Positions 682-23,798 of a stretch of DNA of 64,000 nt are shown piece after piece. Location: contig WOZH01000041.1 of assembly GCA_011620375.1 (NCBI GenBank), positions 3,506 through 67,505 of the forward strand. Direction: 5' to 3'. The stretch comes from Acholeplasmataceae bacterium (GTDB lineage Bacteria > Bacillota_I > Bacilli_A > Acholeplasmatales > Acholeplasmataceae). Positions within the stretch are counted from its first letter, which is position 1. Every line of letters starts with the position of its first letter. Position numbers and translations under genes: made by a program. The notes below the pieces were generated by a model that was not told where the DNA came from, searched no databases, and saw only the letters and a list, made by a program, of their open reading frames with translations.

Positions 682-850
682 ATCATCACTCCTCTGAAAT
701 CATGATATCAATTGAAGATAAAAATTTTATTAAATGATCAAATAAAGATTAAAAGTTGACACTACCACCCTAGAAAAAGATACCGAATACTTTAATTAAT
801 TAAAGTTATAAAGTATAATATGAGTTACACAAGCTTGAAAGGGGAACTAT

Positions 851-2668
851 ATGATTATCGTATATGTAATAGATAACTACGGAGAATTATCTAATGGTAC
901 GACGATAACTGCATTACGTTCAAAGGAACAACTAGAAAAACGTGGTCATACAGTAAGAGTTGTTACTGCTGGATCGGTATCAGGACCAGAGGTATATCAT
1001 TTAAAAAAGCGATACATGCCGATTGTTTCACCTGTGTCTGCAAGACAACAAATGTATTTTGCTAAGCCGGACAAAGTGATTATGACTGAAGCATTCAAAG
1101 ATGCTGATGTTGTTCATTTTTTCATGCCATGGAAAGTGTCGAGATATGGCATTAAATTATGCCGCCGATTAAATATACCTTATACTGCAGCATTTCACAC
1201 ACAACCAGAAAATATCACTTTTGGTATGGGCTTAGGACGATTTGGTGGGCCGATTGCTTGGTTTATCTATCGAAAGTTTTGGATACAATTTTATCGCAAG
1301 GTAACGCATGTTCATTGCCCAAGCGCTTTTATTTCATACGAATTAAAAAACCAGCACTATAAAAATAGATTTCATGTCATCTCAAATGGTATAGCAGAAG
1401 TGTACCATCGCGGGGAGAAACAAGTGCATGAAGGCTATCAAATTTTATCAACGGGTCGCTATGCTTTAGAAAAAAGACAAGATATTATCATTAAGGCGAT
1501 TGCTAAATCAAAACATAAAGATCAAATCCATTTGATTTTAGCTGGACAAGGACCACTTGAACACAAATATCGCACATTGGCTCATAAATTAAATGTCAAC
1601 ACCACATTCGCTTTCTATTCACAAAAAGAACTGATTCACAAAATTCAAGAAAGTGACCTATATATTCATGCAGCCGACGCTGAAATCGAAGGTATTGCTG
1701 CTTTAGAGGCGATTGCGTGTGGACTTGTTCCCATTATTGCAGAATCTAATAAGAGTGCAACAGCACAATTTGCTATTGATGATAGAAACATTTTTAAAGT
1801 CAATCAAGTAAATGAACTCTCAGAAAAAATCGACTATTGGTTGGAACATCCAAAAGAAAGAGAAGAAATGTCCGTTAAGTATGAGCATCACGCGGAAAAC
1901 TATCGATTAAGCCACGCGATCTCTTTATTGGAACAAATGTTCAGACAATCGATAGAAGACCATAAAAGAGCAGTTGTTGCCAAACAAAAAGCGCAAAAAA
2001 AATATCGAAAATTAGTTACTAAAACACGATTAAAAAAAGTGATGTCGTGGATGGTTTATTATTTGATTGCACTGCCTTTGTTAACCATCTATTTACGTTT
2101 ATTTAGAGGTATTAAGATTCAAAATAGAAAGAATATCAAGGCGGTTAAAAAAGGTGGCGTGATGATTTCCAATCATGTACATACGCTCGATTCAGCGATG
2201 AACGCGATTACGGTATTTCCTAAAAAACCTGTCTTTACAAGCATTAAATCAAATTTTGAACTACCTGTAGCAGGCAAATTGGTTAGTATATTAGGCTCAA
2301 CACCTGTCCCAGAAACACCATCTGAAATGAAAATCTTTTTCTATGAATTATCCAAACAGGTCAGAAAAGGTAGAATTGTCCATTTTTTCCCAGAAGGTGA
2401 ACTCATTAAGGGTGACGATAAAATTCGTGCATTAAAGCGTGGTGCATTTATGTTAGCAGAAGAAACCATGTCACCAATACTTCCAGTTGGCATTAGTTTT
2501 CATGAAAAACGATCCGTATTCCCGCTATTTATTAAAGATCGCATTTTGATTAATGTAGGAAGTCCAATTTATCCTGATACACTCAAATTAAAAAAAGATT
2601 CTATTGAGCAGTTATCGAATGAATCACAGGATGCTATGAATCAGTTGATCTCAGTTAAATTCGTTTGA
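851..2668 (+). CDS. GT4 glycosyltransferase (cholesterol alpha-glucosyltransferase-like) fused to a C-terminal PlsC-type acyltransferase
   Basis: aa 1-370 GT-B motifs: SNGT, FHTQPE, HVHCPS, ISNG, GRYALEKRQ, EIEGIAALEAIACG. One TM helix near aa 397-418, then NHVHTLD (H-x4-D), FFPEG, KRGAF. Confidence 0.85.
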   Translation: MIIVYVIDNYGELSNGTTITALRSKEQLEKRGHTVRVVTAGSVSGPEVYHLKKRYMPIVSPVSARQQMYFAKPDKVIMTEAFKDADVVHFFMPWKVSRYGIKLCRRLNIPYTAAFHTQPENITFGMGLGRFGGPIAWFIYRKFWIQFYRKVTHVHCPSAFISYELKNQHYKNRFHVISNGIAEVYHRGEKQVHEGYQILSTGRYALEKRQDIIIKAIAKSKHKDQIHLILAGQGPLEHKYRTLAHKLNVNTTFAFYSQKELIHKIQESDLYIHAADAEIEGIAALEAIACGLVPIIAESNKSATAQFAIDDRNIFKVNQVNELSEKIDYWLEHPKEREEMSVKYEHHAENYRLSHAISLLEQMFRQSIEDHKRAVVAKQKAQKKYRKLVTKTRLKKVMSWMVYYLIALPLLTIYLRLFRGIKIQNRKNIKAVKKGGVMISNHVHTLDSAMNAITVFPKKPVFTSIKSNFELPVAGKLVSILGSTPVPETPSEMKIFFYELSKQVRKGRIVHFFPEGELIKGDDKIRALKRGAFMLAEETMSPILPVGISFHEKRSVFPLFIKDRILINVGSPIYPDTLKLKKDSIEQLSNESQDAMNQLISVKFV

Positions 2669-2680: not shown

Positions 2681-2716
2681 AAAAATCCATCTCATTTAAG
2701 GGATGGATTATTTTTT
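2681..2716. terminator. Intrinsic terminator between convergent GT-acyltransferase and pdxT
   Basis: AATCCATC-N10-GATGGATT flanked by A and T runs. Confidence 0.55.
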
Positions 2717-3288
2717 CTTTCCATACACATCGCAACAAAGTATTTGTGAATGGTCAAATCATGCGTTAGTTCTGGATGAAATGCTGTCACTAATTGAAAA
2801 CCTTGCCTAGCAGCAACTATCTTTCCATCAACCGTGGCCAACACGTCAACATTTTTTCCAACATCTTCAATATAGGGCGCTCTAATGAACACAAAATCGA
2901 CAGCATCCTTTTGATTGAAAATGCCTTTAGTTTTAAAACTTCCAGTTTGTCTACCGTAGGCATTTTTCTTTGCAGTGATAGCCATTGTTTGAAGATATGC
3001 CGTTTGATAACCGTGGACAACTTTTGCCAATAACAATAATCCAGCGCATGTTCCAAAAACTGGTAAATTAGACACAATTAATTGTTTAAGTTTATCAACC
3101 ATGTTGAAATCTATTAATAATTTGTAGATGACAGTTGATTCTCCACCCGGCAATATTAATCCATCCATGGGTTTGTCTAAGTCTTTATATTGTCTGATCT
3201 CAAAAGTATCAACACCTAACGTTTTTAGCATCAATTGATGTTCAATAAAACCACCTTGCAAAGCTAAAACACCGATGGTCATAATCAA
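2692..3288 (-). CDS. pdxT: PLP synthase glutaminase subunit
   Basis: [29 protein letters not shown] motifs; adjacent to pdxS. Confidence 0.97.
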
Positions 3289-4160
3289 ATACCACGATCT
3301 CTCATCAATAGTTCAATTTCTTCTTCATTGATACCAACCATGGCTTCTCCAAGATTTTCACTCACTTCAGCTAATACTTTCGGATCATTATAATTGGTTA
3401 CAGCCTTAACAATGGCTGTTGCGCGCTTAGCAGGATTGCCAGATTTAAAAATGCCAGATCCTACAAATACACCTTCAGCGCCTAACTGCATCATTAATGC
3501 CGCATCTGCAGGTGTTGCTATACCGCCAGCTGCAAAATTAACAACTGGTAATTTACCATAATCGTGCACATACTTTAATAAATCATAAGAGACTTCTAAC
3601 GTTTTTGCTTGATTAAATAATTCATCCTCACGAAGTGATTTCACATGTCTGATTTCTGATTGGATGAGACGCATGTGTTTTACTGCTTGGATGACATCAC
3701 CCGTGCCGGGTTCACCTTTCGTTCTAATCATTGAAGCACCTTCACCAATTCTTCGTAAAGCCTCTCCAAGATTTTTTGCACCACAAACAAAAGGCACCTT
3801 AAATAACGTTTTGTCAATATGATAAACATCGTCAGCTGGAGATAAAACTTCCGATTCATCAATATAGTCAATTTCCAGTGCTTCTAATATTTGTGCTTCA
3901 ACAAAATGGCCGATGCGAACTTTTGCCATCACGGGGATTGTGACAGCATTTTGAATTTCTTTAACTAAATGAGGATCACTCATACGAGATACACCGCCAG
4001 CGGCCCTGATATCAGCGGGAATTCTCTCTAAAGCCATGACGGCGCAAGCACCAGCATCTTGTGCTATTTTTGCTTGTTCGACTGATGTGACATCCATGAT
4101 GACGCCACCCTTAAGCATTTGAGCCAACTCTTTATTCAATTCGTAACGACTGTTTTTCAT
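3285..4160 (-). CDS. pdxS: PLP synthase lyase subunit
   Basis: [51 protein letters not shown]. Start placed at ATG 4160 behind RBS GGAGG. Confidence 0.98.
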
Positions 4161-4178
4161 TTTTATATTTCCTCCTTG

Positions 4179-4207
4179 TTGACAATAGGTATGATATCTT
4201 ATATTAT
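4179..4207 (+). promoter_or_regulatory. Sigma70-type promoter for pdxR
   Basis: TTGACA-N17-TATTAT. Confidence 0.6.
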
Positions 4208-4216
4208 ACAAGTGAA

Positions 4217-4262
4217 CTGGCATGTTTTAAATAGCCAGATATAAACAAAACAATAAGGTCAG
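4217..4262. promoter_or_regulatory. Putative PdxR operator (two direct hexamers plus one inverted)
   Basis: Minus strand reads CTGACC-N18-CTGGCT-N10-TGCCAG between divergent pdxS and pdxR. Confidence 0.6.
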
Positions 4263-4267: not shown

Positions 4268-5668
4268 ATGCTAACTTTTTTTCTAGAAAAACACAATAAA
4301 ACACCACTTTACGAACAACTGTATCAGGAAATAAAGCAAAATATTATCAATAATGAGCTCAAAGCGGATGAAAAACTACCTTCTAAGAGGAAGTTAGCTC
4401 AACATCTAAAAGTGAGCGTCATCACAGTTGAAAATGCGTATCATCAGTTGATTGCTGAAGGATATATCAAATCAAAACCGAAATCCGGATTTTTTGTTTT
4501 ACCATTGATTGATTTAATGCCGCCTCAACGTAACACATTTCAACAAGCAGTCATTGAAAAAGTAGAAAAAGACCATTTTTTAATTGATTTTAGAACAAAC
4601 CTTGTTGATACAGATTATTTTCCGTATGACAAAATGGCTAAAATAGAAAAAGAGGTCATACAGTATGAATACAAACATAAACTTAACGATACAAACCATT
4701 TAGGTGATGATGGCTTACGTCTACAAATCTCAAAATTACTTTTTGAGTATCGTGGCATTAGTGCCAAACCCGAATCCATTGTTATAGGATCGGGATCTGA
4801 AAATTTAATAGCGCTATTGGTCATGTTATTGGGAAGAGATAAGGTTTACGGTGTAGAAGAACCAGGATATCTTAAAAACTATCAATTATATCAGAATTAT
4901 GGTGCATCGTCTAAAACATTTCGGATTGAGAAAGAGGGCATCAATACTGATTTATTAACACAAATAGATGTTGTGCATATCACACCAAGCCATCAATTTC
5001 CGCTAGGCATTGTCATGCCAATATCAAAAAGAATAGAACTATTAAATTGGGTAAATGAAGATCAAAAACGATATATTATTGAAGATGACTATGACAGTGA
5101 ATTTCGTTTTTCTGGTAAACCTATACCAGCGCTAAAAAGTTTAGACCATATGAATAAAGTCATTTATCTCAATTCATTTTCTAAGAGTATTGCCCCATCT
5201 TATCGGGTTAGTTTCATGGTCTTGCCAGATTACTTGATGAATCGGTTTAATCAACAGTTTTCTCACCTTATATGTTCAGTGCCCATAGTGACACAATTAA
5301 CGCTGGAAAGATTCATAAGAGATCATGCATATGAGAAACATTTAAGCAGAATGAAAAATATTTATAAATTGAAAAGAGATATTTTAATCGATCATCTGAA
5401 AAGAGCGAATTTCAAATCCAAAATTTCAATCAAAGGCGAGGAAAGTGGATTGCACTTTTTACTTGATATTTCTACGAAACTTGATATTGATGAGTTGATA
5501 GATCGAGCAAAACAAAAAAATGTTCGTTTATATGGCATTCATGAATATTACTTAAATAAACACGATGAATCACAGCGTAAAACGCTGGTTATGGGGTATT
5601 CGCACATGAACGAAAAACAACTTAAAAAAGCAGTGGAATTACTTGAATCAGCTTGGAAGGATATTTAA
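4268..5668 (+). CDS. pdxR: MocR/GabR-family regulator (GntR wHTH plus PLP aminotransferase-like domain)
   Basis: PLYEQLY...LPSKRKLA...VSVITV..AY wHTH; TPSHQFPLG, IEDDYDSEFRF, SFSKS; divergent from pdxST. Confidence 0.9.
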   Translation: MLTFFLEKHNKTPLYEQLYQEIKQNIINNELKADEKLPSKRKLAQHLKVSVITVENAYHQLIAEGYIKSKPKSGFFVLPLIDLMPPQRNTFQQAVIEKVEKDHFLIDFRTNLVDTDYFPYDKMAKIEKEVIQYEYKHKLNDTNHLGDDGLRLQISKLLFEYRGISAKPESIVIGSGSENLIALLVMLLGRDKVYGVEEPGYLKNYQLYQNYGASSKTFRIEKEGINTDLLTQIDVVHITPSHQFPLGIVMPISKRIELLNWVNEDQKRYIIEDDYDSEFRFSGKPIPALKSLDHMNKVIYLNSFSKSIAPSYRVSFMVLPDYLMNRFNQQFSHLICSVPIVTQLTLERFIRDHAYEKHLSRMKNIYKLKRDILIDHLKRANFKSKISIKGEESGLHFLLDISTKLDIDELIDRAKQKNVRLYGIHEYYLNKHDESQRKTLVMGYSHMNEKQLKKAVELLESAWKDI

Positions 5669-6949: not shown

Positions 6950-8245
6950 ATGGCACTTAAACTTTCACGAGCAGAAAAAAATAAAGAGATTAATAGACGA
7001 TTTGAAATTTTTAAATCACTAATGTCTTCTTTTGTCATTGGTACAGCAGCAATTATTATTGCTGTTGTTTTCGTGCCTACTTCACCAAAAGCTGAAATTA
7101 TTAAAGCCAATGCATTGATTGATACAGTTACTTATCAAGTCTCGGTTACGGATAAAGCCAATGCACTTGATTTAACTACATTAGTTGTTTCATTGGAAAA
7201 CCAAATTGAACATTATGAACACGAAATTAGTTTGGGTGAAAGCTCAGGCTATTTTGATAGCTTAACACCCAATACAGATTATTGGTTGAACGTTTACGGC
7301 AGTAAGGGGTATGGGCAAGAGCGCTTAGATTCAATCAAATTGACCACGAGAGATAAAACTGGCGCATTTATTTTAGGTGTTGATGAGCAACAAGTCGAGT
7401 GGGAAACGACATACACGATTGATGTTTTAGTCAACGATCCTGATAACCTATATAACAGTATCAATCTTTATTATGGGTATCGATGGGAACCTGAAACTGA
7501 TTTGATGTACACAGCCATACCCATCACAACCACTAGACAGCAAATAGAGATTTTTGATATATATACAAGTTTACCGTTTCATGTATACATAGCAGGTATG
7601 TTAGACGGTGATACAGTCATATTAGATGAGCAATGGGTCACCCCATCTTTCCAATTATATGATGAAATGTTTTTAAATTATATTGGCGATGATACCATTG
7701 GGCTTATGATGTATGGCGGCATGACAGATATCGACATAGCATATCACGTCAATGTTTATCGCGGTAGCGTCTTATTGAAACGAATTGAGGTCGATATTGG
7801 CACCTCAATGCATGGATCAACATTTCCAATTTCTGGATTGTTACCTAACACGACATATCGATTGGAAGGTGTAGCGACCTATACAAATCCCCAAACATTA
7901 AGAAATGAGTCACAAATCATCTATGATGAAGAAGTGACAACTTTGGCGGATTATCAAATATCGTATCAAATCGTATCATATGAAGCATACTTGGAAGCGA
8001 CCATCACGATAGTTGATCCAAACCACTATTTCCAATTAGCATCCTATGAGTTGATTGATGTGACAGGAGAAATGCCAATTTATATCATGAGCGAAACATT
8101 TAGCTTTACAGCAAATGGTCATAGTCAATCAACCACATTCATCATCATGATACCAACTGATATTACTTATCAAGTCATCATCGATGTTAGAAGTGAAACA
8201 AATTATATGATTCGTCATATTATTTATGATGAAATAAGCGAATAG
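6950..8245 (+). CDS. Membrane-anchored surface protein with FN3/Ig-like modules
   Basis: One N-terminal TM helix followed by an acidic beta-rich region; SLTPNTDYWLNV and GLLPNTTYRLEG resemble FN3 L-x-P-x-T-x-Y motifs. Confidence 0.6.
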   Translation: MALKLSRAEKNKEINRRFEIFKSLMSSFVIGTAAIIIAVVFVPTSPKAEIIKANALIDTVTYQVSVTDKANALDLTTLVVSLENQIEHYEHEISLGESSGYFDSLTPNTDYWLNVYGSKGYGQERLDSIKLTTRDKTGAFILGVDEQQVEWETTYTIDVLVNDPDNLYNSINLYYGYRWEPETDLMYTAIPITTTRQQIEIFDIYTSLPFHVYIAGMLDGDTVILDEQWVTPSFQLYDEMFLNYIGDDTIGLMMYGGMTDIDIAYHVNVYRGSVLLKRIEVDIGTSMHGSTFPISGLLPNTTYRLEGVATYTNPQTLRNESQIIYDEEVTTLADYQISYQIVSYEAYLEATITIVDPNHYFQLASYELIDVTGEMPIYIMSETFSFTANGHSQSTTFIIMIPTDITYQVIIDVRSETNYMIRHIIYDEISE

Positions 8246-9907: not shown

Positions 9908-11545
9908 ATGAAAAAAAATAGCGCTCTACGAAAATCATATATCGTTGTCATCACTATCGTTATACTTATCGGTCTATTGGCGCTTATTTTTCGAACTGCT
10001 GTAGGCGTGAAATTAGATGTACCAGCACCAGTGTTAAGCGAAGGATGGTTTTATGAAGGTGTTGAGTTAATCGAATACCCCGCAAAAGTGTCTATCGATA
10101 CGGATGATTCTTTCACGATTTATAAAACGATTGAGGCAACGGACAAAAGATTTGATCTATTGCTGTATACCGATCATCAAGATGTGATTGTGAGATTGGA
10201 TGACACAGTCGTGTATATGTCAACACAAGCAGCATCCAGCGCATCGTTTTATGCCAATCTCCATCATATGGTAACCATAGAAAATAACACAAATTTGAGT
10301 CGGGTTTTATCGATTACTTATCATTCGCCCTATCAGCGAACATCTGGATTAATCGCCCCAATCTATGAAACAGATGAATCAACAGGAGTGCTCTATACTT
10401 ATATTATTTCACAACATATTTGGTATGTTGTGTTTGGCATGCTCTTTATCCTTATTGGCATAGTTACTTTGGCAATCAGCCATGTCGTCGATCAAGCAAC
10501 ATCACGAGGTAGATTTTATTTGGGATTGTTTGCCATCACATTTGGCTTATGGGTGATTGCTAGATCGACGCTATTGCAGTTTGTCACAAACAACGTCTAT
10601 ATCTTGGGCGGGTTAAGTTTAACATTGTTTATGATTTTACCCATACCAATCCTGATGTATTATAAGAGCCATATTACAAAAAGATTTGAACAAGAAACAT
10701 TAGGATTAATTGCTTATTTTGGCTTACAAGCCATTGTTATCACAATGTTGCAAATTGCAGGTGTGCTAGATTTTGTAAAACCCGTGTTGTTCGTGTCAAT
10801 CATGACACTTATCATTATGAGTTTTTTGTTGGCTTTTATTGTTCAAGATGTGCTTAATCATAATGAAATCGCTAAAAAGTTTAGTCGTTATTATGGTATT
10901 TTATTTCTTTATGCGTTCATCACTTTCATCGATGATCAAACATTTAATCATGACAATTTATCCATTTATAGCCTTGCAGTATTGGTATTACTCTCACTCG
11001 TCGTTCTTTTGGACTATATCTTTTTCATAGAGAAAAGATTAAAGCTCAGTTACTTATCCGAGGATTATGCAAGACTAGCATATATGGACCGATTGACAGG
11101 CTCAAAAAACAGGCATGCCTACGAAGAAGATTTCGAACGTTATTTTAGTGATAATCGTCTCAAGAATAATATGAGGTTAGTATTTTTTGATTTCGATGGT
11201 TTAAAACAAATCAACGATCAATATGGGCATGTCGAAGGTGATTTTGTATTAAAAGAAGGTTTTACATCTATTCTTAACGCGTTTGGAAGATATGGTGAAT
11301 GTTATCGCATCGGTGGTGATGAATTTTCATGTATCATTCAATCTCTCGATGATGATCTTTATCAAAACTGCAAAAAACAACTAATTAATGACATAAAGAC
11401 ATTTAGTACATACCATAAATTTGATTTACATATATCTGTGGGAACTGCAACGTATCAAGAAGGTATTGATGAAAAACCAAATGATATGATTATACGAGCC
11501 GATAAGAATATGTATGAAAATAAAAACGGACATAAAAATGTCTAG
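9908..11545 (+). CDS. Membrane-bound diguanylate cyclase (extracellular sensor, multi-TM region, GGDEF)
   Basis: DRLTG..NR, DFDGLKQINDQYGHVEGD, RIGGDEF; about 7 TM helices after an extracellular domain. Confidence 0.88.
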   Translation: MKKNSALRKSYIVVITIVILIGLLALIFRTAVGVKLDVPAPVLSEGWFYEGVELIEYPAKVSIDTDDSFTIYKTIEATDKRFDLLLYTDHQDVIVRLDDTVVYMSTQAASSASFYANLHHMVTIENNTNLSRVLSITYHSPYQRTSGLIAPIYETDESTGVLYTYIISQHIWYVVFGMLFILIGIVTLAISHVVDQATSRGRFYLGLFAITFGLWVIARSTLLQFVTNNVYILGGLSLTLFMILPIPILMYYKSHITKRFEQETLGLIAYFGLQAIVITMLQIAGVLDFVKPVLFVSIMTLIIMSFLLAFIVQDVLNHNEIAKKFSRYYGILFLYAFITFIDDQTFNHDNLSIYSLAVLVLLSLVVLLDYIFFIEKRLKLSYLSEDYARLAYMDRLTGSKNRHAYEEDFERYFSDNRLKNNMRLVFFDFDGLKQINDQYGHVEGDFVLKEGFTSILNAFGRYGECYRIGGDEFSCIIQSLDDDLYQNCKKQLINDIKTFSTYHKFDLHISVGTATYQEGIDEKPNDMIIRADKNMYENKNGHKNV

Positions 11546-12605: not shown

Positions 12606-14480
12606 ATGTCAAAAACAAAAAAATTTAAAACGCAGTCACAAAAACTATTACATTTAATGACGCATTCCATCTATACGCAAAAGGAAATTTTTTTAAGAGA
12701 ATTAATTTCAAATGCCTCAGATGCCATCGATAAGCGTCATTTTTTGTCGCTCACAGATACGAGCATTCCCGCAACGGATTATGAAATTTGGTTAGAGCCA
12801 AACAATGAAAAAAGAACACTGACTATCCGTGATAATGGCATTGGTTTCACAGAAGATGAACTGGTTGATAATTTAGGAACCATTGCACAAAGCGGTTCAA
12901 AAGCCTTCCAGGAAAAGTTGGAAAAAGAAGATATCAACATTATTGGGCAATTCGGTGTTGGCTTTTATTCAGCGTTCATGGTCGCGCATAAGGTCGAAGT
13001 AAGAACGAAATCACCCTATTCAGATACAGGGTATCTATGGTCTTCGATTGGTGAATCATCCTATCAAATTGATCCAATAGAAAAAAAAGAAATTGGAACT
13101 GAAATCACGCTTTACCTCAATGAAGATGACACGGATAACGAAGAGGATTATTCAACGTTTTTGGATGACTATACGTTAAGAAGGCTTGTTAAAAAATATA
13201 GCGACTATGTCCGTTATCCAATTAAAATGAAAGTCGTTGTCAAAGAGGATAAAAAAGAGAAGACGGAAATTCAGACGCTCAATCAAATGACCCCGATTTG
13301 GAAACGGTCAAAATCTGAATTAAAAGATGAAGACCTCAATGAATTTTATAAACACCAGTTTAATGATTATGAGGATCCGTTATTGACGATTCATACCAAG
13401 GTAGAAGGATCATTGACATACACTGCATTATTGTTCATACCTAAAAAAGTCCCTTATGATTTTTACAGTGAAAAATATGAAAAAGGGTTGCAGTTGTATT
13501 CAAAGAGTGTCTTCATTCAAGATAAAAACAAAGATTTATTACCGGACTACTTTAAGTTTGTAAAAGGTCTTGTTGATTCAGCAGACATCAGTTTAAATAT
13601 ATCCCGTGAGATGTTACAACAAAATCAACAAGTTAAACGAATCGCGTCCAATATCGAAAAGAAAATCAAAAGCGAACTTGAAAAACTATTGGAAAATGAT
13701 CGTGCGAAATATGTCGAATTTTATGATGCGTATCGGCTAACATTAAAATATGGTGTATATGATATGTACGGCATGAACAAAGAAAAACTTCAAGACCTCA
13801 TCATGTTCAAAACGAGTTCATCGGATGATTATATCACGTTAAAGGAATATGTTGAACGCAAACCAGAAGCACAAAAAGCAATCTACTATGCAACAGGTAA
13901 AAACAAGGCTGCCATCATGAATTTGCCACAAATGGATCTTGTGAAGGAAAAGGGATACGAAGTCTTATTCCTTACTGATGAAATCGATGAATTCATGATT
14001 CAAATCTTGAATACATATGAAGACACACCATTTAAGTCACTACAACAAGGTGAAGCTGACTTTATCGATGAAGAAAAGAAAGAAAGTCTTAAAGCACAAG
14101 AAAAAGAAAATAAAGATGTTTTAAAAGCGATGAAGAATGCGTTGAAGGATAAAGTCAAGGACGTTAAATTATCTGCGAGATTATCAGATTCACCGGTATG
14201 TTTGGTTTCCGGTGAAGGATTATCATTGGAAATGGAAAAAGTACTGAAGCAAATGCCAAATGCGCAAGACGTCAAAGCCGAACGAATCTTGGAAATCAAT
14301 CCAAATCATCCACTGTTCAAAGCGATTAATGATCGTTTTGAAAAGGATCCGTCAACGATTGATCGTTACGCATCCATTCTATATCATCAGGCTTTACTTG
14401 CTGAAGGCTTGCCAATTGAGGATTCAACAGAGTTCTCTAAATATTTGGTTGACTTGATGGTTGATTCAAATAAAAACTAA
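12606..14480 (+). CDS. htpG: Hsp90 chaperone
   Basis: EIFLRELISNASDA, DNGIG, NLGTIAQSG, IGQFGVGFYSAF, LNISREMLQ, LEINPNHP. Confidence 0.97.
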   Translation: MSKTKKFKTQSQKLLHLMTHSIYTQKEIFLRELISNASDAIDKRHFLSLTDTSIPATDYEIWLEPNNEKRTLTIRDNGIGFTEDELVDNLGTIAQSGSKAFQEKLEKEDINIIGQFGVGFYSAFMVAHKVEVRTKSPYSDTGYLWSSIGESSYQIDPIEKKEIGTEITLYLNEDDTDNEEDYSTFLDDYTLRRLVKKYSDYVRYPIKMKVVVKEDKKEKTEIQTLNQMTPIWKRSKSELKDEDLNEFYKHQFNDYEDPLLTIHTKVEGSLTYTALLFIPKKVPYDFYSEKYEKGLQLYSKSVFIQDKNKDLLPDYFKFVKGLVDSADISLNISREMLQQNQQVKRIASNIEKKIKSELEKLLENDRAKYVEFYDAYRLTLKYGVYDMYGMNKEKLQDLIMFKTSSSDDYITLKEYVERKPEAQKAIYYATGKNKAAIMNLPQMDLVKEKGYEVLFLTDEIDEFMIQILNTYEDTPFKSLQQGEADFIDEEKKESLKAQEKENKDVLKAMKNALKDKVKDVKLSARLSDSPVCLVSGEGLSLEMEKVLKQMPNAQDVKAERILEINPNHPLFKAINDRFEKDPSTIDRYASILYHQALLAEGLPIEDSTEFSKYLVDLMVDSNKN

Positions 14481-15338: not shown

Positions 15339-15367
15339 TTGACTTCGAAAGAGTCGTTTGGTACAAT
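15339..15367 (+). promoter_or_regulatory. Sigma70 promoter of the RND-tetR operon
   Basis: TTGACT-N17-TACAAT with extended -10 TG. Confidence 0.75.
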
Positions 15368-15376
15368 GGAAGAAAA

Positions 15377-15394
15377 CGACCGACCGGTCGGTCG
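15377..15394. promoter_or_regulatory. TetR-type operator
   Basis: Perfect GC-rich 18-bp palindrome CGACCGACCGGTCGGTCG just downstream of the -10 box in AT-rich DNA. Confidence 0.75.
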
Positions 15395-15417
15395 GCCTAA
15401 ACATCAAAGGAGCACAT

Positions 15418-18400
15418 ATGAGTAAATACAGTGTTAGAAAACCAATTACCGTTTTAATGGGTATATTAATTGTGGTTACATTAGGTATTTTTGCAGTCAC
15501 CAAATTACCATTGAATTTGTTTCCAGATATTAATCTTCCTTATTTGGTAACGATTACGACGTTTGAAGGAGAAAATCCTGAAACGTTAGAAGCGAGCGTG
15601 TCAGCTCCGATTGAATCTGCAGCAGCAACGGTTAATAGCTATACTGAAATCAGTTCAATGAGTTACGAACATTTTGCTGTATCGATCATTACGTTCGAAG
15701 ATGGCGCAAACATGGATTCCGCCTTTATTGAACTGAGAGAATCAATTAATAATATAGAGTTTCCGGATGGTGTTGGAAATACACGCATTCTAAGAATAAG
15801 CCCTGATATGCTTCCCGTCATGCAAGTGTCTTTATCTCAAGCATATGGTGATGATGTCACAGATGAAGAAGCACTTATTTTAAACACGGCATGGATTAAT
15901 GAATATATCATATCAGAATTAACATCGATCAGTGGGGTTGCTGATGTATCTATTAGCGGCGCAGCAGATACGGTTTTACAAATTAATCTAAATCTGACAA
16001 CACTCGATAGTTATGGGTTAACCTCTAATGATGTGTTAACCATCATCGAAGAACAAAATGTTTCTGGATTGGTTGGTGTTGCGCTTGATAATGGTGAGAT
16101 TAGAATGCTCTATTTGGGAAATAATCCATCTTCATTGACAGAAGTAGAGAATTTACCCATCTTAGAAAACGCAGGAATAATTATCAGATTAAGTGATCTT
16201 GTCACAGTAGATGGTATCAAGTATATGAATGCCAACACAGAAACGTATTCAAAAATTAATGGCAAGCAGGGCATCAATATTTCATTTCAAGCACAAACTG
16301 ATTATAGTATCACAGAAGTGACAGACAATATTTTATCTAGATTGGATGAGATTCTAGATCAGTACCCAGATGCTAGTTATGATGTGTTATTAAATCAAGG
16401 CGAGTATATTAGAGTTTCAATCAATACCGTTTTGCAAAATCTCATATTTGGTGCAATTTTAGCGGTACTCGTTTTATTCTTATTTCTAAGAGATGTTAAA
16501 CCGACATTAATTGTTGGATTGGCAATTCCTATCTCCGTTATTGCTGCATTCATGCTGATGTATTTCACAGGTGTCACCTTGAATATGGTTTCAATGGGAG
16601 GACTTGCGTTAGGCATTGGGATGCTGGTGGATAATGCGATTGTTGTGATTGAAAACATTTATCGAATGATCGGTGAAGGTAAATCGAAGCATGACGCCGC
16701 TATTTATGGTGCAAAACAAGTCGCTGGCGCCATCACTGCATCTACTTTAACAACAGTCGTCGTCTTCTTACCTATCTTATTCTTAGAAGGTATCATTAAC
16801 GAAGTCTTTGTTAATATGATGTTGACGATTGCTTACTCATTAGGTGCCTCTTTGATCATTGGTTTAACGATGGTACCGATGTTATCTGCTAGAATGCTAG
16901 ATGATAAGAAGCCAATGAAAGAAAGTAAATTTTTGCATAATGTCAAAAATGCTTATGAAAAAGCTGTAAACTTTACCATTCATCATCAAGCAATTACTTA
17001 TATTACAGTGCTTGTATTACTTGTAGGTAGTTTCTTCTTAGTGTACGCAAAAGGATTTATTATGTTACCAACTTCTGATGAAGGCTATATTGATATTACG
17101 GTTATAACAGATAGTACAGCCACATTTGCTGGTCAAGCAGAATATGCGGATTATATAACAGAACAAATCTTAGCTATTGAAGCGGTTGAAACAGTTTCTG
17201 CAACCATTGGCTCCGGAGGCGGTGGTGGTTTAGCTTTGATGCAAACCATGGTATCGGGTGGTAGCAGTGGCATCAACATGACGGTAAGTTTGCTGGATAA
17301 TCGCGCACACGATACGGCATACTATAGAAATGAAATTATCGATATATTTAACACCGTAGATTTTAGCGAATTTACAGCGTTTACAGCTTCCAATATTTTA
17401 GAAGTTAATGTCGCATCACAGGACACAACGGCTATGATTTCTGGTGCTTCCGGTATTAACATAAAAATATCCGGTTATGATTTATTGACACTTGAAGCGA
17501 TAGCTAATGATATCGCAGCTGTTTTAGCGGATGTTGAACATGTCGAGGATGTTGACAATGGGGTTGATCAAGGCGCTGACAATATTAAATTGACAGTAGA
17601 TGTCGATCAAGCGATGTTAGTAGGATTGACAGTGAGCGACATCGATGAAAATATCAATTATTTCTTCTCACTAATAGCAGGTTTAGCAGGAAGTTCAGAA
17701 ACAGTCACACTACAAATTGAAGGGGTTGACTATAATATAGAATTACCACAAAGCGAACTTAATAGCATTGATTATAGTCTCTTTGGTGATTATGAACAAT
17801 TTTTAGATGGCATCATGTTATTTGATGATGCTACTAGAATCATGATTGATGATTATATTAATCAAGGTGGATTATTATATGTCCCCAATGTATCATTGCC
17901 TACTTATACACCTGGAGAACCAGTGATGTTCATTGTTAATCCATATTTATATGTAGAAAATGGCGCAATCACCATGATGCCAACAGATCCAATGAATTCA
18001 CCATCATTAGTATCACTTGCGGTCGCACCATTATATGATGGCACAGCAACTAGTGTAACAACCGTTGAACGTGTTACGGGGTTTGCTACTATCTACACAG
18101 ATGGATCTAGTCGTTATTTAACCGTAACCGGTCAAATCGAAGACGGGTATAATGTCACATTGATTTCAAGTGATGCCACAGATGCCGTTAACGCTTATTT
18201 AGAAAGCGATGATTTCGCTGCATACGGTGGTGGATATACGGTCTCATTCGTCGGTGAAAATGAAAATATTTTAGCAGCAGTTAATGATTTAGTTATTGCA
18301 GGTTTGATTGCAATCGCATTGGTGTACATGGTTATGGCGATTCAATTCCAGTCGCTGCTTTACCCGCTCATTATCTTAGGTACAGTACCGCTAGCATTTA

Positions 18401-18828
18401 CCGGGGGTATGTTTGCACTATTGATTACAAATATGAATCTATCGATGGTTTCAATCATGGGACTTATTGTTCTTGTGGGTGTAGTTGTTAATAACGGAAT
18501 CGTGTTGATTGATTATATCAATAAATTGCGAGAAGAAGGAAAAGGCGTCAAAGAAGCGATTATTGAAGCAGGTAAAACACGTATTAGACCAATTTTCATG
18601 ACCGCACTAACAACGATTCTTGCATTGTTCATCATGGCATTAGGAATTGGTCAAGGGGCTGAATTGTTACAGCCAATGGCTGTCACAGCGATTGGTGGTC
18701 TTGTATATGCTACGGTCTTAACATTACTTGTGGTACCAGCCATTTATGCGCTTGTTAATCGTAAAAAAATTAAACTGGAAGAAGCGGAAGCTAAAAAGGA
18801 AGTTGATGGACATGTCAACGAAGGATAG
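15418..18828 (+). CDS. RND (AcrB/SwrC-like) transporter
   Basis: SVRKPITV, NLFPDINLP, GMLVDNAIVVIENI, GVVVNNGIVLID, RIRPIFMT; 12-TM layout with two large external domains. Start at ATG 15418 (RBS AAGGAG). Confidence 0.92.
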   Translation: MSKYSVRKPITVLMGILIVVTLGIFAVTKLPLNLFPDINLPYLVTITTFEGENPETLEASVSAPIESAAATVNSYTEISSMSYEHFAVSIITFEDGANMDSAFIELRESINNIEFPDGVGNTRILRISPDMLPVMQVSLSQAYGDDVTDEEALILNTAWINEYIISELTSISGVADVSISGAADTVLQINLNLTTLDSYGLTSNDVLTIIEEQNVSGLVGVALDNGEIRMLYLGNNPSSLTEVENLPILENAGIIIRLSDLVTVDGIKYMNANTETYSKINGKQGINISFQAQTDYSITEVTDNILSRLDEILDQYPDASYDVLLNQGEYIRVSINTVLQNLIFGAILAVLVLFLFLRDVKPTLIVGLAIPISVIAAFMLMYFTGVTLNMVSMGGLALGIGMLVDNAIVVIENIYRMIGEGKSKHDAAIYGAKQVAGAITASTLTTVVVFLPILFLEGIINEVFVNMMLTIAYSLGASLIIGLTMVPMLSARMLDDKKPMKESKFLHNVKNAYEKAVNFTIHHQAITYITVLVLLVGSFFLVYAKGFIMLPTSDEGYIDITVITDSTATFAGQAEYADYITEQILAIEAVETVSATIGSGGGGGLALMQTMVSGGSSGINMTVSLLDNRAHDTAYYRNEIIDIFNTVDFSEFTAFTASNILEVNVASQDTTAMISGASGINIKISGYDLLTLEAIANDIAAVLADVEHVEDVDNGVDQGADNIKLTVDVDQAMLVGLTVSDIDENINYFFSLIAGLAGSSETVTLQIEGVDYNIELPQSELNSIDYSLFGDYEQFLDGIMLFDDATRIMIDDYINQGGLLYVPNVSLPTYTPGEPVMFIVNPYLYVENGAITMMPTDPMNSPSLVSLAVAPLYDGTATSVTTVERVTGFATIYTDGSSRYLTVTGQIEDGYNVTLISSDATDAVNAYLESDDFAAYGGGYTVSFVGENENILAAVNDLVIAGLIAIALVYMVMAIQFQSLLYPLIILGTVPLAFTGGMFALLITNMNLSMVSIMGLIVLVGVVVNNGIVLIDYINKLREEGKGVKEAIIEAGKTRIRPIFMTALTTILALFIMALGIGQGAELLQPMAVTAIGGLVYATVLTLLVVPAIYALVNRKKIKLEEAEAKKEVDGHVNEG

Positions 18829-19430: not shown

Positions 19431-19468
19431 GTTATGCTATAATAATCATGACAAAAGGAGATGATAAA

Positions 19469-20818
19469 ATGATGAACTTAGATCATCAAAAAGCCTTTTT
19501 TAATCAAGGGATGACAAGAGATTTGTCGTTTAGAAAGTCACAGTTAAATGCCCTGTATCATGCGATTGAGAAACATGAAAAAAACCTGTTGTTGGCACTG
19601 GAAAAAGATTTGAATAAATCGCCTTATGAAGCGTATATGACGGAAATCGGTTATGTAAAAAAATCTATTTCATTCGCCTTAAAACATCTCAATAAATGGA
19701 TGAAAACAAAACATGTAAAAACACCATACTATCAATTGTTTACGCAATCATACATTCAACCTGAACCATTAGGCATCGTTCTGATTATTGGTGCCTATAA
19801 CTACCCCGTTCAATTACTCATCGAACCATTAATAGGTGCGATTGCTGCAGGCAATACAGCGGTTTTGAAACCAAGCGAGCAGGCTGTATATACAGAACAA
19901 GCTTTAGTAGAAATGATTAGAGATACTTTTGATCAATCATATATTGACATCATCACTGGTGATGCAGCGGTCACATCATCATTATTAGATTTAAAATTCG
20001 ATCATATTTTTTTTACTGGAAGTACACGCGTTGGCAAAATCGTTTATGAAAAAGCAGCAAAACAATTGATACCGGTGACATTAGAATTGGGTGGGAAAAG
20101 TCCGGCAATTGTCACTCAAAAAGCGAATTTAAAACATAGCGCAAAACGGATTGCGTTCGGCAAATTGATTAATTCCGGGCAGACATGTATCGCACCTGAT
20201 TACGTTTATGTTGAAAAGATCATTGAAAAGGAATTCATATCTGAACTACAAAAAATGATAAAAAAGTTTTCTGATCCGCATGGAAATTATGGCGCGATGA
20301 TTACCGATAAGCACTATCAAAATATAGTGGCATTAGCCGCTGCAAACCCGCACGGAAAAACCGCTGAAAAAAATCAAGAAAAGCGTACAATAGAGCCCAT
20401 TATCATGCATCATGTATCGTGGGAAGACGACATCATGAAACGTGAAATATTTGGTCCGATCCTACCGGTATTGACTTTTGATAACACTTCAGAATTGATT
20501 GCAACTTTAAAAGAAAAAGAAAAACCACTAGCGTTATATTTATTCACTGATGACAAGGCTGAACAGCGAAAAATATTTTCTTCATTAAGTTTTGGTGGTG
20601 GGGCAATTAACGATACAATTATACATTTCGCTAATCCACATCTTCCTTTTGGTGGTGTTGGACAAAGCGGTATAGGAACATATCATGGTTATGCATCCTT
20701 TCTAACGTTTTCACACATGAAAGGATACACCAAAAAAGGCATTAAGCTAGATTTACCATTAACTTATCCACCTGCATCAGATAAAAAATTTCATATGATC
20801 AAGAAGTTCTTAAAGTGA
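19469..20818 (+). CDS. Aldehyde dehydrogenase (class 3 / YwdH-like)
   Basis: IGAYNYP, LKPSE, FFTGS, LELGGKSP, NSGQTCIAPDY, EIFGPILP, PFGGVGQSG. Confidence 0.93.
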   Translation: MMNLDHQKAFFNQGMTRDLSFRKSQLNALYHAIEKHEKNLLLALEKDLNKSPYEAYMTEIGYVKKSISFALKHLNKWMKTKHVKTPYYQLFTQSYIQPEPLGIVLIIGAYNYPVQLLIEPLIGAIAAGNTAVLKPSEQAVYTEQALVEMIRDTFDQSYIDIITGDAAVTSSLLDLKFDHIFFTGSTRVGKIVYEKAAKQLIPVTLELGGKSPAIVTQKANLKHSAKRIAFGKLINSGQTCIAPDYVYVEKIIEKEFISELQKMIKKFSDPHGNYGAMITDKHYQNIVALAAANPHGKTAEKNQEKRTIEPIIMHHVSWEDDIMKREIFGPILPVLTFDNTSELIATLKEKEKPLALYLFTDDKAEQRKIFSSLSFGGGAINDTIIHFANPHLPFGGVGQSGIGTYHGYASFLTFSHMKGYTKKGIKLDLPLTYPPASDKKFHMIKKFLK

Positions 20819-20889: not shown

Positions 20890-21027
20890 TATAAATTTGC
20901 ATATCGTTAATAATATGTTATTTTTCAAGCAATAAAACATATCAATATATTTTCTATTTGTGCTTGTGATAGAATAAACACACAACGGACTATATGTCAT
21001 ATTTATATGAAAGATATGGTGATTTAT

Positions 21028-21960
21028 ATGATAGAAACAAAAACAAATGCGTATCACACCACTTTGACGTCAAGAAATTTACTGATGCTCACAATTGCTT
21101 TGGGTGTGTTATTGTTTGCCGGAGCAATTATTTTTGGGTTCTATGTGCTTTTAGTAGCAGCCGTCGCTGTCGCAGCTGCGGGACTTGTTGAACTTTTATT
21201 CTCTAGCGTTAGAAAAATAGATTTTGACTATTTTTGGTTTATCACGCCGCTGATTTTCACTTTATTGTTGCCACCATCTATCCCATTATGGATTGCGGGT
21301 GTCGGATCCTTTTTTGGATATTTTTTTGGAAAAAGTATCTTTGGTGGAGCGGGTAAGACAGTATTCAACCCAGCACTTGTTGGGATTTTGTTTGTCACCA
21401 TCTCGTTTCCTCAATTTATTTTGACAGCTTGGCTAGATCCTGTTACAGGTGTGATCGGTACGCAAACACCGTTATCATTGTTGAATAGCGGAAATGTATT
21501 TACATACACGATGTCTGATTTATTCTTTGGCTATACACCGGGTACTATCGGTGAAACATTTAGAATTGGCATTCTTGTGTTAGGCTTGTTAATGATGGCA
21601 TTGCGCGTCACTGACTGGCGCATTCCAGTCGGTATTTTGGGTACTGTATTCATCGTTACATTATTAGGTTATTACATACTACCGAGTCAATTTGCTGATC
21701 CTTACTATTCTCTATTTGTTGGTTCTGTGCTATTCGTTGCATTTTTTGTTGCTACAGAGCCAGTATCAGCACCAAAAAAACCATGGGGTAGATTGTATTA
21801 TGGCATTGGCATCGGATTATTGATTGTATTGATTAGAAATTTTGGAACATTTCCAGAAGGCACAGTATTCGCTGTGATTTTAATGAATGCCGTTGGCGCA
21901 CTGTTTGATGCGGGTAAAAAAGTAGAAAAGGTAGGTGAACTTAGTGAACAGGAATCTTAA
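21028..21960 (+). CDS. RnfD/NqrB-family membrane subunit
   Basis: K.IFGG.GKTVFNPALVG, TQTPL, GTIGET, LFVAFFVATEPVSAP, FPEGTVFAVILMN. About 310 aa (RnfD-sized). Confidence 0.88.
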   Translation: MIETKTNAYHTTLTSRNLLMLTIALGVLLFAGAIIFGFYVLLVAAVAVAAAGLVELLFSSVRKIDFDYFWFITPLIFTLLLPPSIPLWIAGVGSFFGYFFGKSIFGGAGKTVFNPALVGILFVTISFPQFILTAWLDPVTGVIGTQTPLSLLNSGNVFTYTMSDLFFGYTPGTIGETFRIGILVLGLLMMALRVTDWRIPVGILGTVFIVTLLGYYILPSQFADPYYSLFVGSVLFVAFFVATEPVSAPKKPWGRLYYGIGIGLLIVLIRNFGTFPEGTVFAVILMNAVGALFDAGKKVEKVGELSEQES

Positions 21961-23202: not shown

Positions 23203-23216
23203 GGAGGAACTGATAT

Positions 23217-23789: not shown

Positions 23790-23798
23790 GGGGGGATT

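Follow-up and report, generated by a model that had tools for sequence, protein, structure and literature searches.

A single gene of an Acholeplasmataceae bacterium joins a glycosyltransferase (GT) resembling Helicobacter pylori HP0421 to an LPLAT-superfamily acyltransferase (AT). The gene lies in the 64,000-nt stretch of DNA that we analyzed (hereafter the window). The fusion of an HP0421-like GT4 to an LPLAT acyltransferase is confirmed, and the likeness to HP0421 is far beyond chance. On balance, we favor the reading that this polypeptide is a coupled synthase, which would alpha-glycosylate a neutral membrane lipid, with diacylglycerol the likeliest, and would acylate the sugar afterwards.

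Pfam searches of the 605-aa protein placed Glyco_transf_4 (PF13439) at residues 15–181 (5.5e-17), Glycos_transf_1 (PF00534) at residues 190–341 (3.1e-26) and Acyltransferase (PF01553) at residues 421–549 (6.3e-16; Table 1). An earlier note on this DNA, made from the letters, had described a GT-B domain, one TM helix and a PlsC-type domain in one polypeptide; given these Pfam domains within a single 605-aa ORF, that arrangement is real. Its GT motifs are also present (SNGT, FHTQPE, HVHCPS and ISNG), as are the E-x7-E of the GT and the AT motifs NHVHTLD (aa 441–447) and FPEGEL (aa 513–518). Across 77 aligned GT-AT homologues, which share 41–86% identity with the window protein, E278, E280 and E286 of the GT and N441, H442, D447, E515 and L518 of the AT are invariant (77/77). 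Because catalytic and motif residues are retained at this level of divergence, both domains are under selection. The full-length AF2 model has a pLDDT of 91.6 and a pTM of 0.89, from which the GT and AT domains are predicted to hold a defined mutual arrangement.

Table 1. Positions of the GT-AT gene, its flanking signals and its domains and motifs within the window.
Feature	Position	Strand	Basis or remark
Ribosome-binding site GAAAGGGG	837..844	+	6 nt 5' of ATG; read from sequence
Whole ORF, 605 aa + stop: GT4, basic linker, hydrophobic anchor, LPLAT	851..2668	+	ATG start; Pfam; 100% self-match P0001 and full-length homologues at 42–86% identity
HP0421-like retaining GT-B glycosyltransferase, aa 1–372 (N-domain ~aa 1–185, C-domain ~aa 190–372)	851..1966	+	HP0421 alignment, Pfam, 3qhp
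GT4 E-x7-E motif, E278-I-E-G-I-A-A-L-E286	1682..1708	+	E278, E280, E286 invariant in 77 homologues
Basic linker, aa 372–395, 11 K/R, no D/E	1964..2035	+	Helical in AF2 model
Hydrophobic membrane anchor, aa 396–418, near-invariant Y403 and P409	2036..2104	+	AF2 helix 393–418
LPLAT-superfamily acyltransferase domain, aa 421–605	2111..2665	+	PF01553 6.3e-16; below TIGR00530 cutoff
Motif I, N441-H442-V-H-T-L-D447 (catalytic H-x4-D)	2171..2191	+	N, H, D invariant 77/77 and 15/15
Motif II equivalent, L481-G-S-T-P-V-P-E-T489	2291..2317	+	PlsC F-L-D-R aligned to P485-V-P487-E488
Motif III, F513-P-E-G-E-L518	2387..2404	+	EGTR Arg position is Leu
Terminator-like hairpin and T-run	2684..2719	+	Separates stop codon from convergent pdxT

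Over 383 aligned positions, residues 1–379 of full-length HP0421 (389 aa; sequence from genome locus L007) match residues 1–372 of the window protein at 41% identity (E 6e-105). The HP0421 C-domain structure, PDB 3qhp, is the best PDB sequence match (E 9e-43) and superposes on the AF2 model with a TM of 0.96 and an rmsd of 1.0 Å. The suggested likeness to HP0421 therefore extends along the whole GT. In a Foldseek search with the full model, BshA, PimA, WaaG and MshA were matched at a probability of 1.00; GT-B matches dominated this search, and none was returned for the AT domain. Two Rossmann-like domains and the C-domain E-x7-E are those of CAZy GT4-type enzymes. Within GT4, HP0421 is the closest characterized enzyme over the full length, and the two clade together in NJ trees (200 bootstraps, with weak deep nodes); HP0421-type enzymes are standalone proteins of ~390 aa, whereas the window protein is a 605-aa fusion. 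The NCBIfam model for alMGS, NF049988, gave 38.4 bits for the window protein against a cutoff of 400, and 31.3 bits for HP0421 itself. When checked against both HP0421 and alMGS, then, the GT sides with HP0421, and its grouping there, apart from generic DAG glucosyltransferases, is supported by the tree and the profile scores.

HP0421 is the one characterized enzyme of its clade, described in secondary sources as a cholesterol alpha-glucosyltransferase that uses host cholesterol. It was at one time annotated as a 'capsular polysaccharide biosynthesis protein'.

The AT domain keeps the catalytic motifs of PlsC and lacks the residues that bind the phosphate of LPA. TmPlsC (5kym) is the only significant solved relative of the AT profile (E 3.8e-14). 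PF01553, the motif I N-H-x4-D and the motif III P-E-G are shared with PlsC, and the HX4D dyad, the PlsC-like alpha/beta fold and a membrane-embedded helix ahead of it are those of LPLAT enzymes in the broad sense. TmPlsC R128, the motif II Arg, aligns to E488; the seven commonest residues at this position in the 77 homologues are E (30), T (10), K (8), D (7), Q (5), S (4) and A (3), with Arg not among them. At the place of TmPlsC R159, the EGTR Arg, the window protein has L518, with Leu found there in 77/77 and 14/15 sequences, and TmPlsC K105 aligns to a position without conservation. TIGR00530 scored 53.6 bits on the full protein and 56.3 bits on the AT alone, below its cutoff of 102.95. According to PMC6688108, LPAATs conserve and require the motif II and III arginines, and the phosphate of LPA is bound by R159 and K105.

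Because the LPA-phosphate-binding arginines of motifs II and III are absent, the AT domain can hardly be an ordinary PlsC, and the loss of phosphate-binding residues points to an acceptor without phosphate. The earlier description of an 'intact PlsC-type domain' thus stands for the catalytic motifs and fails for these arginines, which strengthens the case for an AT substrate other than LPA. The arginine loss would fit a sugar, monoacylglycerol, lyso-glycolipid or other neutral hydroxyl equally well; it tells us what the AT probably does not do.

At least 500 species-level genomes from four phyla carry the GT-AT module, which takes three forms: fused, split into overlapping adjacent GT and AT genes, and GT alone. 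The earlier note had proposed to survey the fusion across Acholeplasmatales; the module is no peculiarity of that order. Both domains share one ORF at 53/80 loci, and at 14/80 a ~375-aa GT is directly followed by an AT gene of ~250 aa that overlaps it and has a start codon and RBS to itself. Frameshift artefacts were considered as a source of these split pairs and ruled out, since separate starts, RBSs and ATGA overlaps recur in 14 independent genomes. No other neighbor was conserved in 156 loci, where the remaining clusters were antisense ORFs or lineage-specific synteny. That the two domains are fused or overlapping at most loci and share no other conserved neighbor argues for a functional GT-AT linkage, and the view that both act in one pathway is strengthened accordingly by the gene relationship. 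In NJ trees, the Helicobacter CGTs form a GT-only clade nested within the GT+AT radiation, with the Acholeplasmataceae clade as their sister in ~31% of bootstrap replicates. No AT partner gene was found at the Helicobacter CGT loci.

The module is common in free-living Clostridia (including those of anaerobic digesters), Thermacetogenium and soil Micromonosporaceae. It is fused or split in Oscillospiraceae, and its carriers include the cultured gut commensal Ruthenibacterium lactatiformans and MAGs of Oscillospiraceae and Christensenellaceae. Further cultured carriers are Gracilinema caldarium, Actinoplanes and Dactylosporangium, and the complete MAG chromosomes OY775910.1 and OY781159.1 also belong to carriers. 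The window gene itself was found in oil-field, groundwater and landfill metagenomes. Among the matches listed, A. granularum (ATCC 19168) and A. equifetale (ATCC 29724) are the only named Acholeplasma carriers, and neither a fusion nor a GT-only orthologue appears for A. laidlawii or A. axanthum. The link once drawn to the acyl-glycolipids of acholeplasmas was dropped on this ground, the absence of an orthologue from the matches listed for A. laidlawii and A. axanthum being strong but not absolute. It is from these two species that acylated glucolipids are known, which leaves the family without an assignable known product, and the searchable literature yielded nothing on any fused or split member. 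The patchy, accessory presence of the gene in Acholeplasma is a poor fit to a housekeeping role.

How might the two domains work together? The polypeptide would be a membrane-anchored, two-enzyme maker of an acylated alpha-glycosyl membrane lipid at the cytoplasmic face. In a first step, suggested by HP0421 homology and GT4 chemistry, the retaining GT-B domain would form an alpha-glycoside by attaching a hexose to the free hydroxyl of a neutral membrane lipid; the sugar would probably be glucose and its donor UDP-glucose. In a second, the LPLAT His-Asp dyad would transfer a fatty acyl group from acyl-ACP or acyl-CoA to a hydroxyl of the glycolipid. H. pylori CAG, PatA in PIM and the CruD carotenoid glucoside esters are parallels that make the 6-OH of the sugar the most likely site.

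Between the domains, aa 396–418 form the sole hydrophobic segment outside the Rossmann core, and standalone AT partners start with the same segment. The stretches on either side of it contain 11 and 7 K/R without a single D or E, so both GT and AT are placed on the cytoplasmic side. The anchor is probably monotopic or re-entrant. With its Pro409 kink and basic residues on both sides, this helix would keep both active sites at one membrane surface, as a counterpart of the monotopic N-terminal helix of PlsC.

In a free-living subsurface Acholeplasmataceae, the acceptor would most probably be diacylglycerol, giving acyl-Glc-DAG, with ceramide and sterol less likely. An endogenous acceptor such as DAG is favored by the sources of the gene (oil-field and groundwater metagenomes) and of the module (soil actinomycetes and digester Clostridia among them). 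HP0421, GT-only and acting on cholesterol, is the sole biochemical anchor, so the choice of DAG as the most probable acceptor is made on ecological grounds. Ceramide had been suggested from an spt gene in the window; that gene is indeed present, yet it lies 53 kb away and nothing ties it to the GT-AT gene. The window holds a Spt/KdsR pair, from which the organism probably makes sphingoid bases.

The arginine loss leaves room for an account in which AT action precedes glycosylation or has nothing to do with the sugar. The AT would then acylate a neutral lyso- or monoacyl lipid, such as monoacylglycerol, a lyso-glycolipid or a derivative of a sphingoid base, to make or remodel the backbone of the acceptor or product, and no sugar ester would form. 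The lost phosphate-binding Arg/Lys would fit any unphosphorylated hydroxyl acceptor equally, glycerol backbones are typical LPLAT targets, the GT-then-AT order of the fusion is uninformative on reaction order, and the window Spt/KdsR pair points to probable synthesis of sphingoid bases. We nevertheless consider backbone acylation unlikely: the PimA/PatA (PMC8519569) and CruC/CruD pairings acylate the sugar, and GT-only members such as those of Helicobacter work without an AT, so the AT is not required to supply the GT acceptor.

The same two-step enzyme could instead use a sterol, making a steryl alpha-glucoside and then its 6'-O-acyl ester on one polypeptide, a task that H. pylori divides between HP0421 and HP0499. 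In its favor, HP0421, the only characterized clade member, is a cholesterol alpha-glucosyltransferase. Helicobacter CGTs retain 72/88 family-conserved GT positions, and with 12 residues specific to their clade, where a control clade has 8, they do not clearly point to a switch of acceptor; the Acholeplasmataceae are grouped as their sister in ~31% of replicates. Acholeplasmas take up sterols, with alpha-steryl glucosides and acyl-diglucosylcholesterol described for A. axanthum in the literature; CGT-like candidates in cholesterol-metabolizing Oscillibacter are reported in secondary sources, and Oscillospiraceae have the module. Against this, six otherwise conserved GT positions show consistent changes in Helicobacter, including N121H beside the QPE motif and Y140F, which could mark a derived sterol specificity, and no A. 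axanthum protein, fusion or GT-only, is among the matches listed. Cholesterol is an unlikely acceptor here because the settings from which the gene derives (oil field, groundwater and landfill) have little free 3-OH sterol to offer, and because free-living organisms, among them Clostridia of anaerobic digesters and Thermacetogenium, and soil Micromonosporaceae abound among the carriers. The sterol acceptor, one of those first proposed for this protein, is on these grounds quite improbable.

We are more doubtful still that the product is no membrane glycolipid at all, and that the module glycosylates and O-acylates a polyprenyl-linked or wall-polymer sugar, a carotenoid or another small hydrophobic alcohol. 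GT4 functions are very broad, as the former capsular annotation of HP0421 illustrates, and carotenoid glucoside esters do arise from a GT and an acyltransferase (CruC/CruD); Micromonosporaceae and acholeplasmas are pigmented. The carriers, however, are mostly non-pigmented anaerobes, the 156 loci have no conserved polysaccharide, carotenoid or export neighbors, the sole tested relative acts on a membrane lipid, and the AT anchor is membrane-embedded and homologous to that of PlsC.

Least plausible is the alternative raised in the earlier note, that the second domain is an ordinary LPA acyltransferase (PlsC) supplying phosphatidic acid and hence DAG: for all that it has PF01553, an intact N-H-x4-D and PEG and TmPlsC as best solved relative, that some sources name the family '1-acyl-sn-glycerol-3-phosphate acyltransferase', and that the 64-kb window, a small part of the genome, holds no second PlsC (and no GT4 paralogue), it has lost both the motif II and the EGTR Arg (the latter is Leu in 77/77) and does not conserve K105, residues needed in LPAATs according to PMC6688108, scores about half of the TIGR00530 cutoff, is patchy among close relatives, and would make PA that needs a phosphatase step before serving as GT acceptor.

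A coupled synthase for acylated alpha-glycosyl lipids would bear on several wider questions. It offers a candidate gene for the sugar acylation of simple glycolipids, a reaction without an assigned enzyme in most bacteria. What is new here is the spread of the module over at least 500 genomes, its fused, split and GT-only forms, the nesting of the Helicobacter CGTs among them and the arginine loss in the AT. HP0421, investigated in connection with immune evasion and as a drug target, is thereby recast as a GT-only branch of a large, normally AT-coupled family, which suggests an origin for CGT and a reason why H. pylori needs an unrelated acyltransferase. Judged from its residues, the AT would be a clean natural case in which an LPLAT, by losing two arginines, has exchanged a phosphorylated acceptor for a neutral one. 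Because many members are named '1-acyl-sn-glycerol-3-phosphate acyltransferase' or just 'glycosyltransferase', this signature is useful for annotation. Acyl-alpha-glucosyl lipids are potent innate-immune ligands, and with the module present in the gut commensal R. lactatiformans, Oscillospiraceae and Christensenellaceae, its product could matter in host-microbe signaling.

These strands can be drawn into one picture, which we put forward as speculative. The module would be a widespread, self-contained acyl-alpha-glycosyl-lipid synthase, and the virulence-associated H. pylori CGT a truncated, horizontally acquired offshoot whose lost AT was later replaced by an OMPLA-type CGAT. Gut Clostridia (Oscillospiraceae, Christensenellaceae, Ruthenibacterium) and treponemes might turn host cholesterol or DAG into 6-O-acyl-alpha-glucosides, a lipid class recognized by Mincle and iNKT cells, and the subsurface Acholeplasmataceae might decorate an endogenous lipid, possibly ceramide by way of the window Spt/KdsR.

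Comparison with known enzymes sets the window protein apart from each of its relatives. It is homologous to HP0421 across the whole GT region, and all family-invariant residues are common to both; HP0421 is a 389-aa standalone enzyme with a cholesterol acceptor, whereas the window protein is an AT fusion whose acceptor is probably not a sterol. The A. laidlawii enzymes alMGS and alDGS are likewise retaining GT4 lipid glycosyltransferases of Mollicutes, with alpha-Glc-DAG as product, but they have no fused AT and are distant relatives of the window GT (38 against 400 bits). With PlsC/LPAAT (TmPlsC, 5KYM) the AT shares the fold, a membrane-embedded helix at the N-terminal end and the motifs N-H-x4-D, P-E-G and V-P-I-x-P (motif IV). 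It differs in lacking the motif II Arg, the EGTR Arg and K105, in falling below the TIGR00530 cutoff and in being GT-fused or operon-coupled and encoded by an accessory gene.

Two-enzyme systems supply the closest parallels to the proposed reaction sequence. In H. pylori, cholesteryl glucoside is acylated by HP0499, an outer-membrane OMPLA-type PLA1 transacylase with PE as acyl donor, in agreement with the earlier statement that a separate, unrelated enzyme does this. The HP0421 and HP0499 route shares the proposed logic, alpha-glucosylation of a lipid followed by acylation of the sugar, but HP0499 is unrelated to the window LPLAT, which would act on the cytoplasmic side, presumably with an acyl thioester donor. 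In mycobacteria, according to PMC8519569, the sugar transferred by the GT4 lipid glycosyltransferase PimA is esterified at its 6-OH by PatA, a dedicated His-Asp acyltransferase associated with the membrane. The structural matches of the window GT include PimA, and this pair too combines a GT4 with an HX4D acyltransferase. PimA and PatA differ in being separate proteins, with GDP-Man as donor and PI as acceptor, and PatA is one that we take to belong to the LpxL-like family PF03279 and not to PF01553. CruC and CruD are again two dedicated enzymes that add first a glycosyl and then an acyl group to a hydrophobic alcohol; the GT is from another family and the substrate is a carotenoid, and CruD is presumably an LPLAT-type enzyme.

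The fusion gene encodes a complete GT-B glycosyltransferase (GT) and an acyltransferase domain (AT) in one polypeptide, and all the motifs listed in the earlier note were found in it. A ribosome-binding site, GAAAGGGG, can be read directly 5′ of the open reading frame. The gene upstream is divergent, pdxT downstream is convergent, and a terminator-like hairpin follows; therefore, the fusion gene is monocistronic. Outside the Rossmann core a single segment is hydrophobic, residues 396–418, and it is helical in a high-confidence AlphaFold2 model (pLDDT 91.6, pTM 0.89) built from an alignment of 77 homologues.

Features of the window, with domain positions in residues of the fusion protein
Feature	Position	Strand	Remark
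Fusion ORF	851-2668	+	ORF call, 605 aa
Glyco_transf_4, first GT-B half	aa 15-181		Pfam
Glycos_transf_1, second GT-B half	aa 190-341		Pfam
Acyltransferase PF01553	aa 421-549		Pfam
Terminator-like hairpin	2684-2709		downstream of fusion ORF
Presumed pdxT	2692-3288	-	from translation
Presumed pdxS	3285-4223	-	from translation
Presumed MocR/PdxR-type regulator	4268-5668	+	466 aa, from translation; faces the pdxT/pdxS-like genes
ORF	6950-8245	+	431 aa; no Pfam/NCBIfam match at E <= 1e-5
GGDEF diguanylate cyclase	9908-11545	+
HtpG/HSP90 homologue	12606-14480	+
ORF	15358-18828	+	1156 aa
Aldehyde dehydrogenase	19448-20818
Na+-NQR subunit B-F-like genes	21007-24884	+	five consecutive
ORF	30724-32334	+	536 aa; no Pfam/NCBIfam match at E <= 1e-5
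Ribosomal protein L10 leader	43989-44105	+	RF00557, 74 bits
Two ORFs, presumed rpoB/rpoC	45763-53771		position and length
Spt-like alpha-oxoamine synthase	55841-57058	+	best NCBIfam model serine palmitoyltransferase, 538 bits (cutoff 640)
KdsR-like SDR	57058-57900	+	best model 3-ketodihydrosphingosine reductase KdsR, 256 bits (cutoff 400)

[quoted passage not shown] Its best solved relative in a sequence search (E 9e-43) was 3qhp, titled in the PDB as the catalytic domain of that enzyme, which superposed on the model with a TM score of 0.96 and an rmsd of 1.0 Å. Over its residues 1–379, full-length HP0421 (389 aa, taken from an H. pylori genome locus) matches residues 1–372 of the window protein with 41% identity (E 6e-105); for scale, HP0421 shares only 56–58% identity with its CGT orthologues in H. 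suis, H. heilmannii and related gastric species. The kinship with HP0421 suggested by the earlier note thus held, and no clustering with generic diacylglycerol glucosyltransferases was seen: against the curated model of alMGS, the A. laidlawii diacylglycerol alpha-glucosyltransferase (cutoff 400 bits), the window protein scored 38 bits and HP0421 31. NCBIfam holds no model covering this GT clade.

We next turn to the AT. A profile built from AT domains, both fused and standalone, matched a single solved structure, T. maritima PlsC (TmPlsC; E 3.8e-14), and the domain is therefore an LPLAT; its score is about half of the TIGR00530 cutoff. The catalytic residues N441, H442, D447 and E515 are invariant across 77 family members. 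LPA acyltransferases conserve both the Arg of motif II and that of EGTR and lose activity when these are mutated; in TmPlsC, R159 and K105 lie where they can bind the phosphate of LPA (PMC6688108). TmPlsC R128 (motif II, F-L-D-R) aligns to E488 within P485-V-P487-E488, R159 (motif III, P-E-G-T-R) to L518 within P-E-G-E-L518, and K105 to a non-conserved position. L518 is invariant in the 77 members, while position 488 usually carries E, T, K, D or Q, with Arg absent from the seven commonest residues listed. Split and actinomycete members share this pattern. From these residues, we infer a catalytically competent AT whose acceptor would lack a phosphate. Motif III itself varies in two family alignments, where the Pro of F-P-E-G is replaced by A in 7/77 and T in 1/77 and the Gly by A in 4/77, and one Christensenellales protein (P0110) reads Y-A-E-A-H-L; E515 and L518 stay invariant throughout these variants.

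Between the two domains, anchor residues Y403 and P409 are near-invariant, and standalone ATs start with the same hydrophobic, Pro-containing segment. The flanks carry 11 K/R before the anchor and 7 after it, and acidic residues are absent from both, which by the positive-inside rule would place both flanks in the cytoplasm. A kinked helix, monotopic or re-entrant, would be consistent with this and would resemble that of TmPlsC, whose N-terminal helix is monotopic owing to a kink (PMC6688108). A cytoplasmic location would also suit the use by both domains of cytoplasmic donors, a UDP-sugar and an acyl thioester.

The module, fused or adjacent, is widespread but patchy. The best 120 matches in a 5.8-billion-protein collection all carried GT and AT Pfam domains, and two alignment-driven scans with one genome per species confirmed at least 519 and at least 470 loci. 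Carriers include Acholeplasmataceae (among them A. granularum and A. equifetale), Izemoplasmatales, Erysipelotrichaceae, Treponema, Gracilinema caldarium and many Clostridia (Christensenellaceae, Oscillospiraceae including Ruthenibacterium lactatiformans, Lachnospiraceae, Peptococcaceae, Thermacetogenium, Caldicoprobacterales). Soil Micromonosporaceae (Dactylosporangium, Actinoplanes, Paractinoplanes, Micromonospora, Phytohabitans, Asanoa; L149–L203 among our loci) encode full-length fusions of ~35% identity. ORF calling on 80 loci of one species-level scan found GT and AT in a single ORF at 53, a ~375-aa GT followed immediately by a ~250-aa AT at 14, and a GT only at 11, where eight had at least 5 kb of downstream sequence and no AT and three lay at contig ends. 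The split junctions are real genes: ATGA overlaps occur, GGAGG sites precede the AT start, and at one junction a stop codon separates the two ORFs and a new ATG follows. No further gene family was conserved beside the module at 156 loci examined. That GT and AT occur either fused or split strongly supports, on comparative grounds, the view that they cooperate as a self-contained unit. In one Clostridia MAG (L115, 5001–7722), two tandem homologues, a 473-aa ORF over parts of both domains and then a 388-aa GT-only gene, may reflect either a duplication or the decay of one copy.

When GT domains were placed in neighbour-joining trees (84 taxa; a second with 62 taxa and 200 bootstraps), the CGTs of Helicobacter grouped as a single GT-only clade (84% support) deep within the fused/split radiation. 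Their sister group includes AT-linked members in 70% of replicates, being a Clostridia group or, in ~31%, the Acholeplasmataceae clade with the window protein. The Helicobacter loci examined had no AT partner; H. pylori cholesteryl glucoside is acylated by HP0499, an outer-membrane phospholipase A1-type transacylase with PE as donor. The simplest reading, with deep nodes weakly supported, is that the Helicobacter CGT is a GT-only derivative of a module that usually has both domains. Of the 88 positions with at least 85% conservation among AT-linked GT domains, Helicobacter GTs keep 72; they differ consistently at six (N121H, Y140F, F160L, A162K, A231K, I279G). Their 12 clade-specific residues are close to the 8 of a control clade; the sequence therefore gives no sign whether acceptor specificity changed. 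The actinomycete fusions form a single clade (97.5% support) that branches among Clostridia fusions, a placement suggestive of horizontal transfer between phyla.

The source organism is free-living and subsurface, not host-associated. Its nearest genomes are MAG chromosomes of uncultured Acholeplasmataceae (77–78% protein identity), and the fusion gene sequence occurs in metagenomes from oil fields (93% and 78% of sampled words), groundwater and landfill. Diguanylate cyclases and HtpG are not usual in reduced Mollicutes genomes, and both genes here fit a free-living lifestyle. The NQR-like genes encode an NQR2_RnfD_RnfE family protein, an FMN_bind protein, two Rnf-Nqr membrane subunits and an NqrF-like Fer2+FAD+NAD reductase; upstream no NqrA-like gene was recognised. 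The ORFs after the L10 leader we take, from position and length, to be rplJ/rplL and then rpoB/rpoC, and after the latter two the 1156-aa ORF is among the window's longest.

We lean, with moderate confidence, towards a two-step mechanism drawn by analogy. The GT4 domain would transfer hexose from UDP-hexose to a neutral membrane lipid, and the LPLAT domain would esterify the resulting alpha-hexosyl lipid, most likely at the sugar 6-OH. That the AT acts on the backbone instead of the sugar is unlikely, and a sterol acceptor marginally more so. HP0421, the sole biochemical anchor for the family, acts on cholesterol; soil actinomycetes, digester Clostridia and this oil-field/groundwater organism have little access to 3-OH sterols, which argues against sterol as the general acceptor. 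Some gut lineages may indeed use a sterol as acceptor, given that Oscillospiraceae carry the module and secondary sources mention CGT-like candidates in cholesterol-metabolising Oscillibacter. The proposed tie to A. axanthum acyl-diglucosylcholesterol or A. laidlawii acyl-glucolipids was not supported, with no fused or GT-only orthologue from either species among the matches listed; an A. granularum query returned, among matches listed to 34% identity, only A. granularum and A. equifetale as named Acholeplasma species. Diacylglycerol is the most economical guess for the acceptor and ceramide is possible. The earlier note had linked ceramide to the window's spt gene: an Spt-like gene is present, directly followed by the KdsR-like gene; the pair, a putative operon for sphingoid bases in a genome of the Acholeplasmataceae, lies 53 kb from the fusion gene with nothing linking it to that gene. 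A non-lipid substrate is improbable. Least credible is the fallback of an ordinary PlsC-type LPA acyltransferase, disfavoured by the missing R128, R159 and K105 equivalents and by the patchy distribution of the module.

We are more confident of the wider claim, that both domains probably serve one neutral-lipid pathway and that the AT is not a PlsC. Databases name the family proteins only "glycosyltransferase" or "1-acyl-sn-glycerol-3-phosphate acyltransferase", and no description of a GT-AT fusion or operon was found in the searchable literature. The component families are already known, as is the glycosylate-then-acylate logic, with precedents in HP0421 with HP0499, PimA with PatA, and CruC with CruD. 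New here are the union of both domains in one polypeptide, the retargeting of the LPLAT, and the kinship with HP0421.
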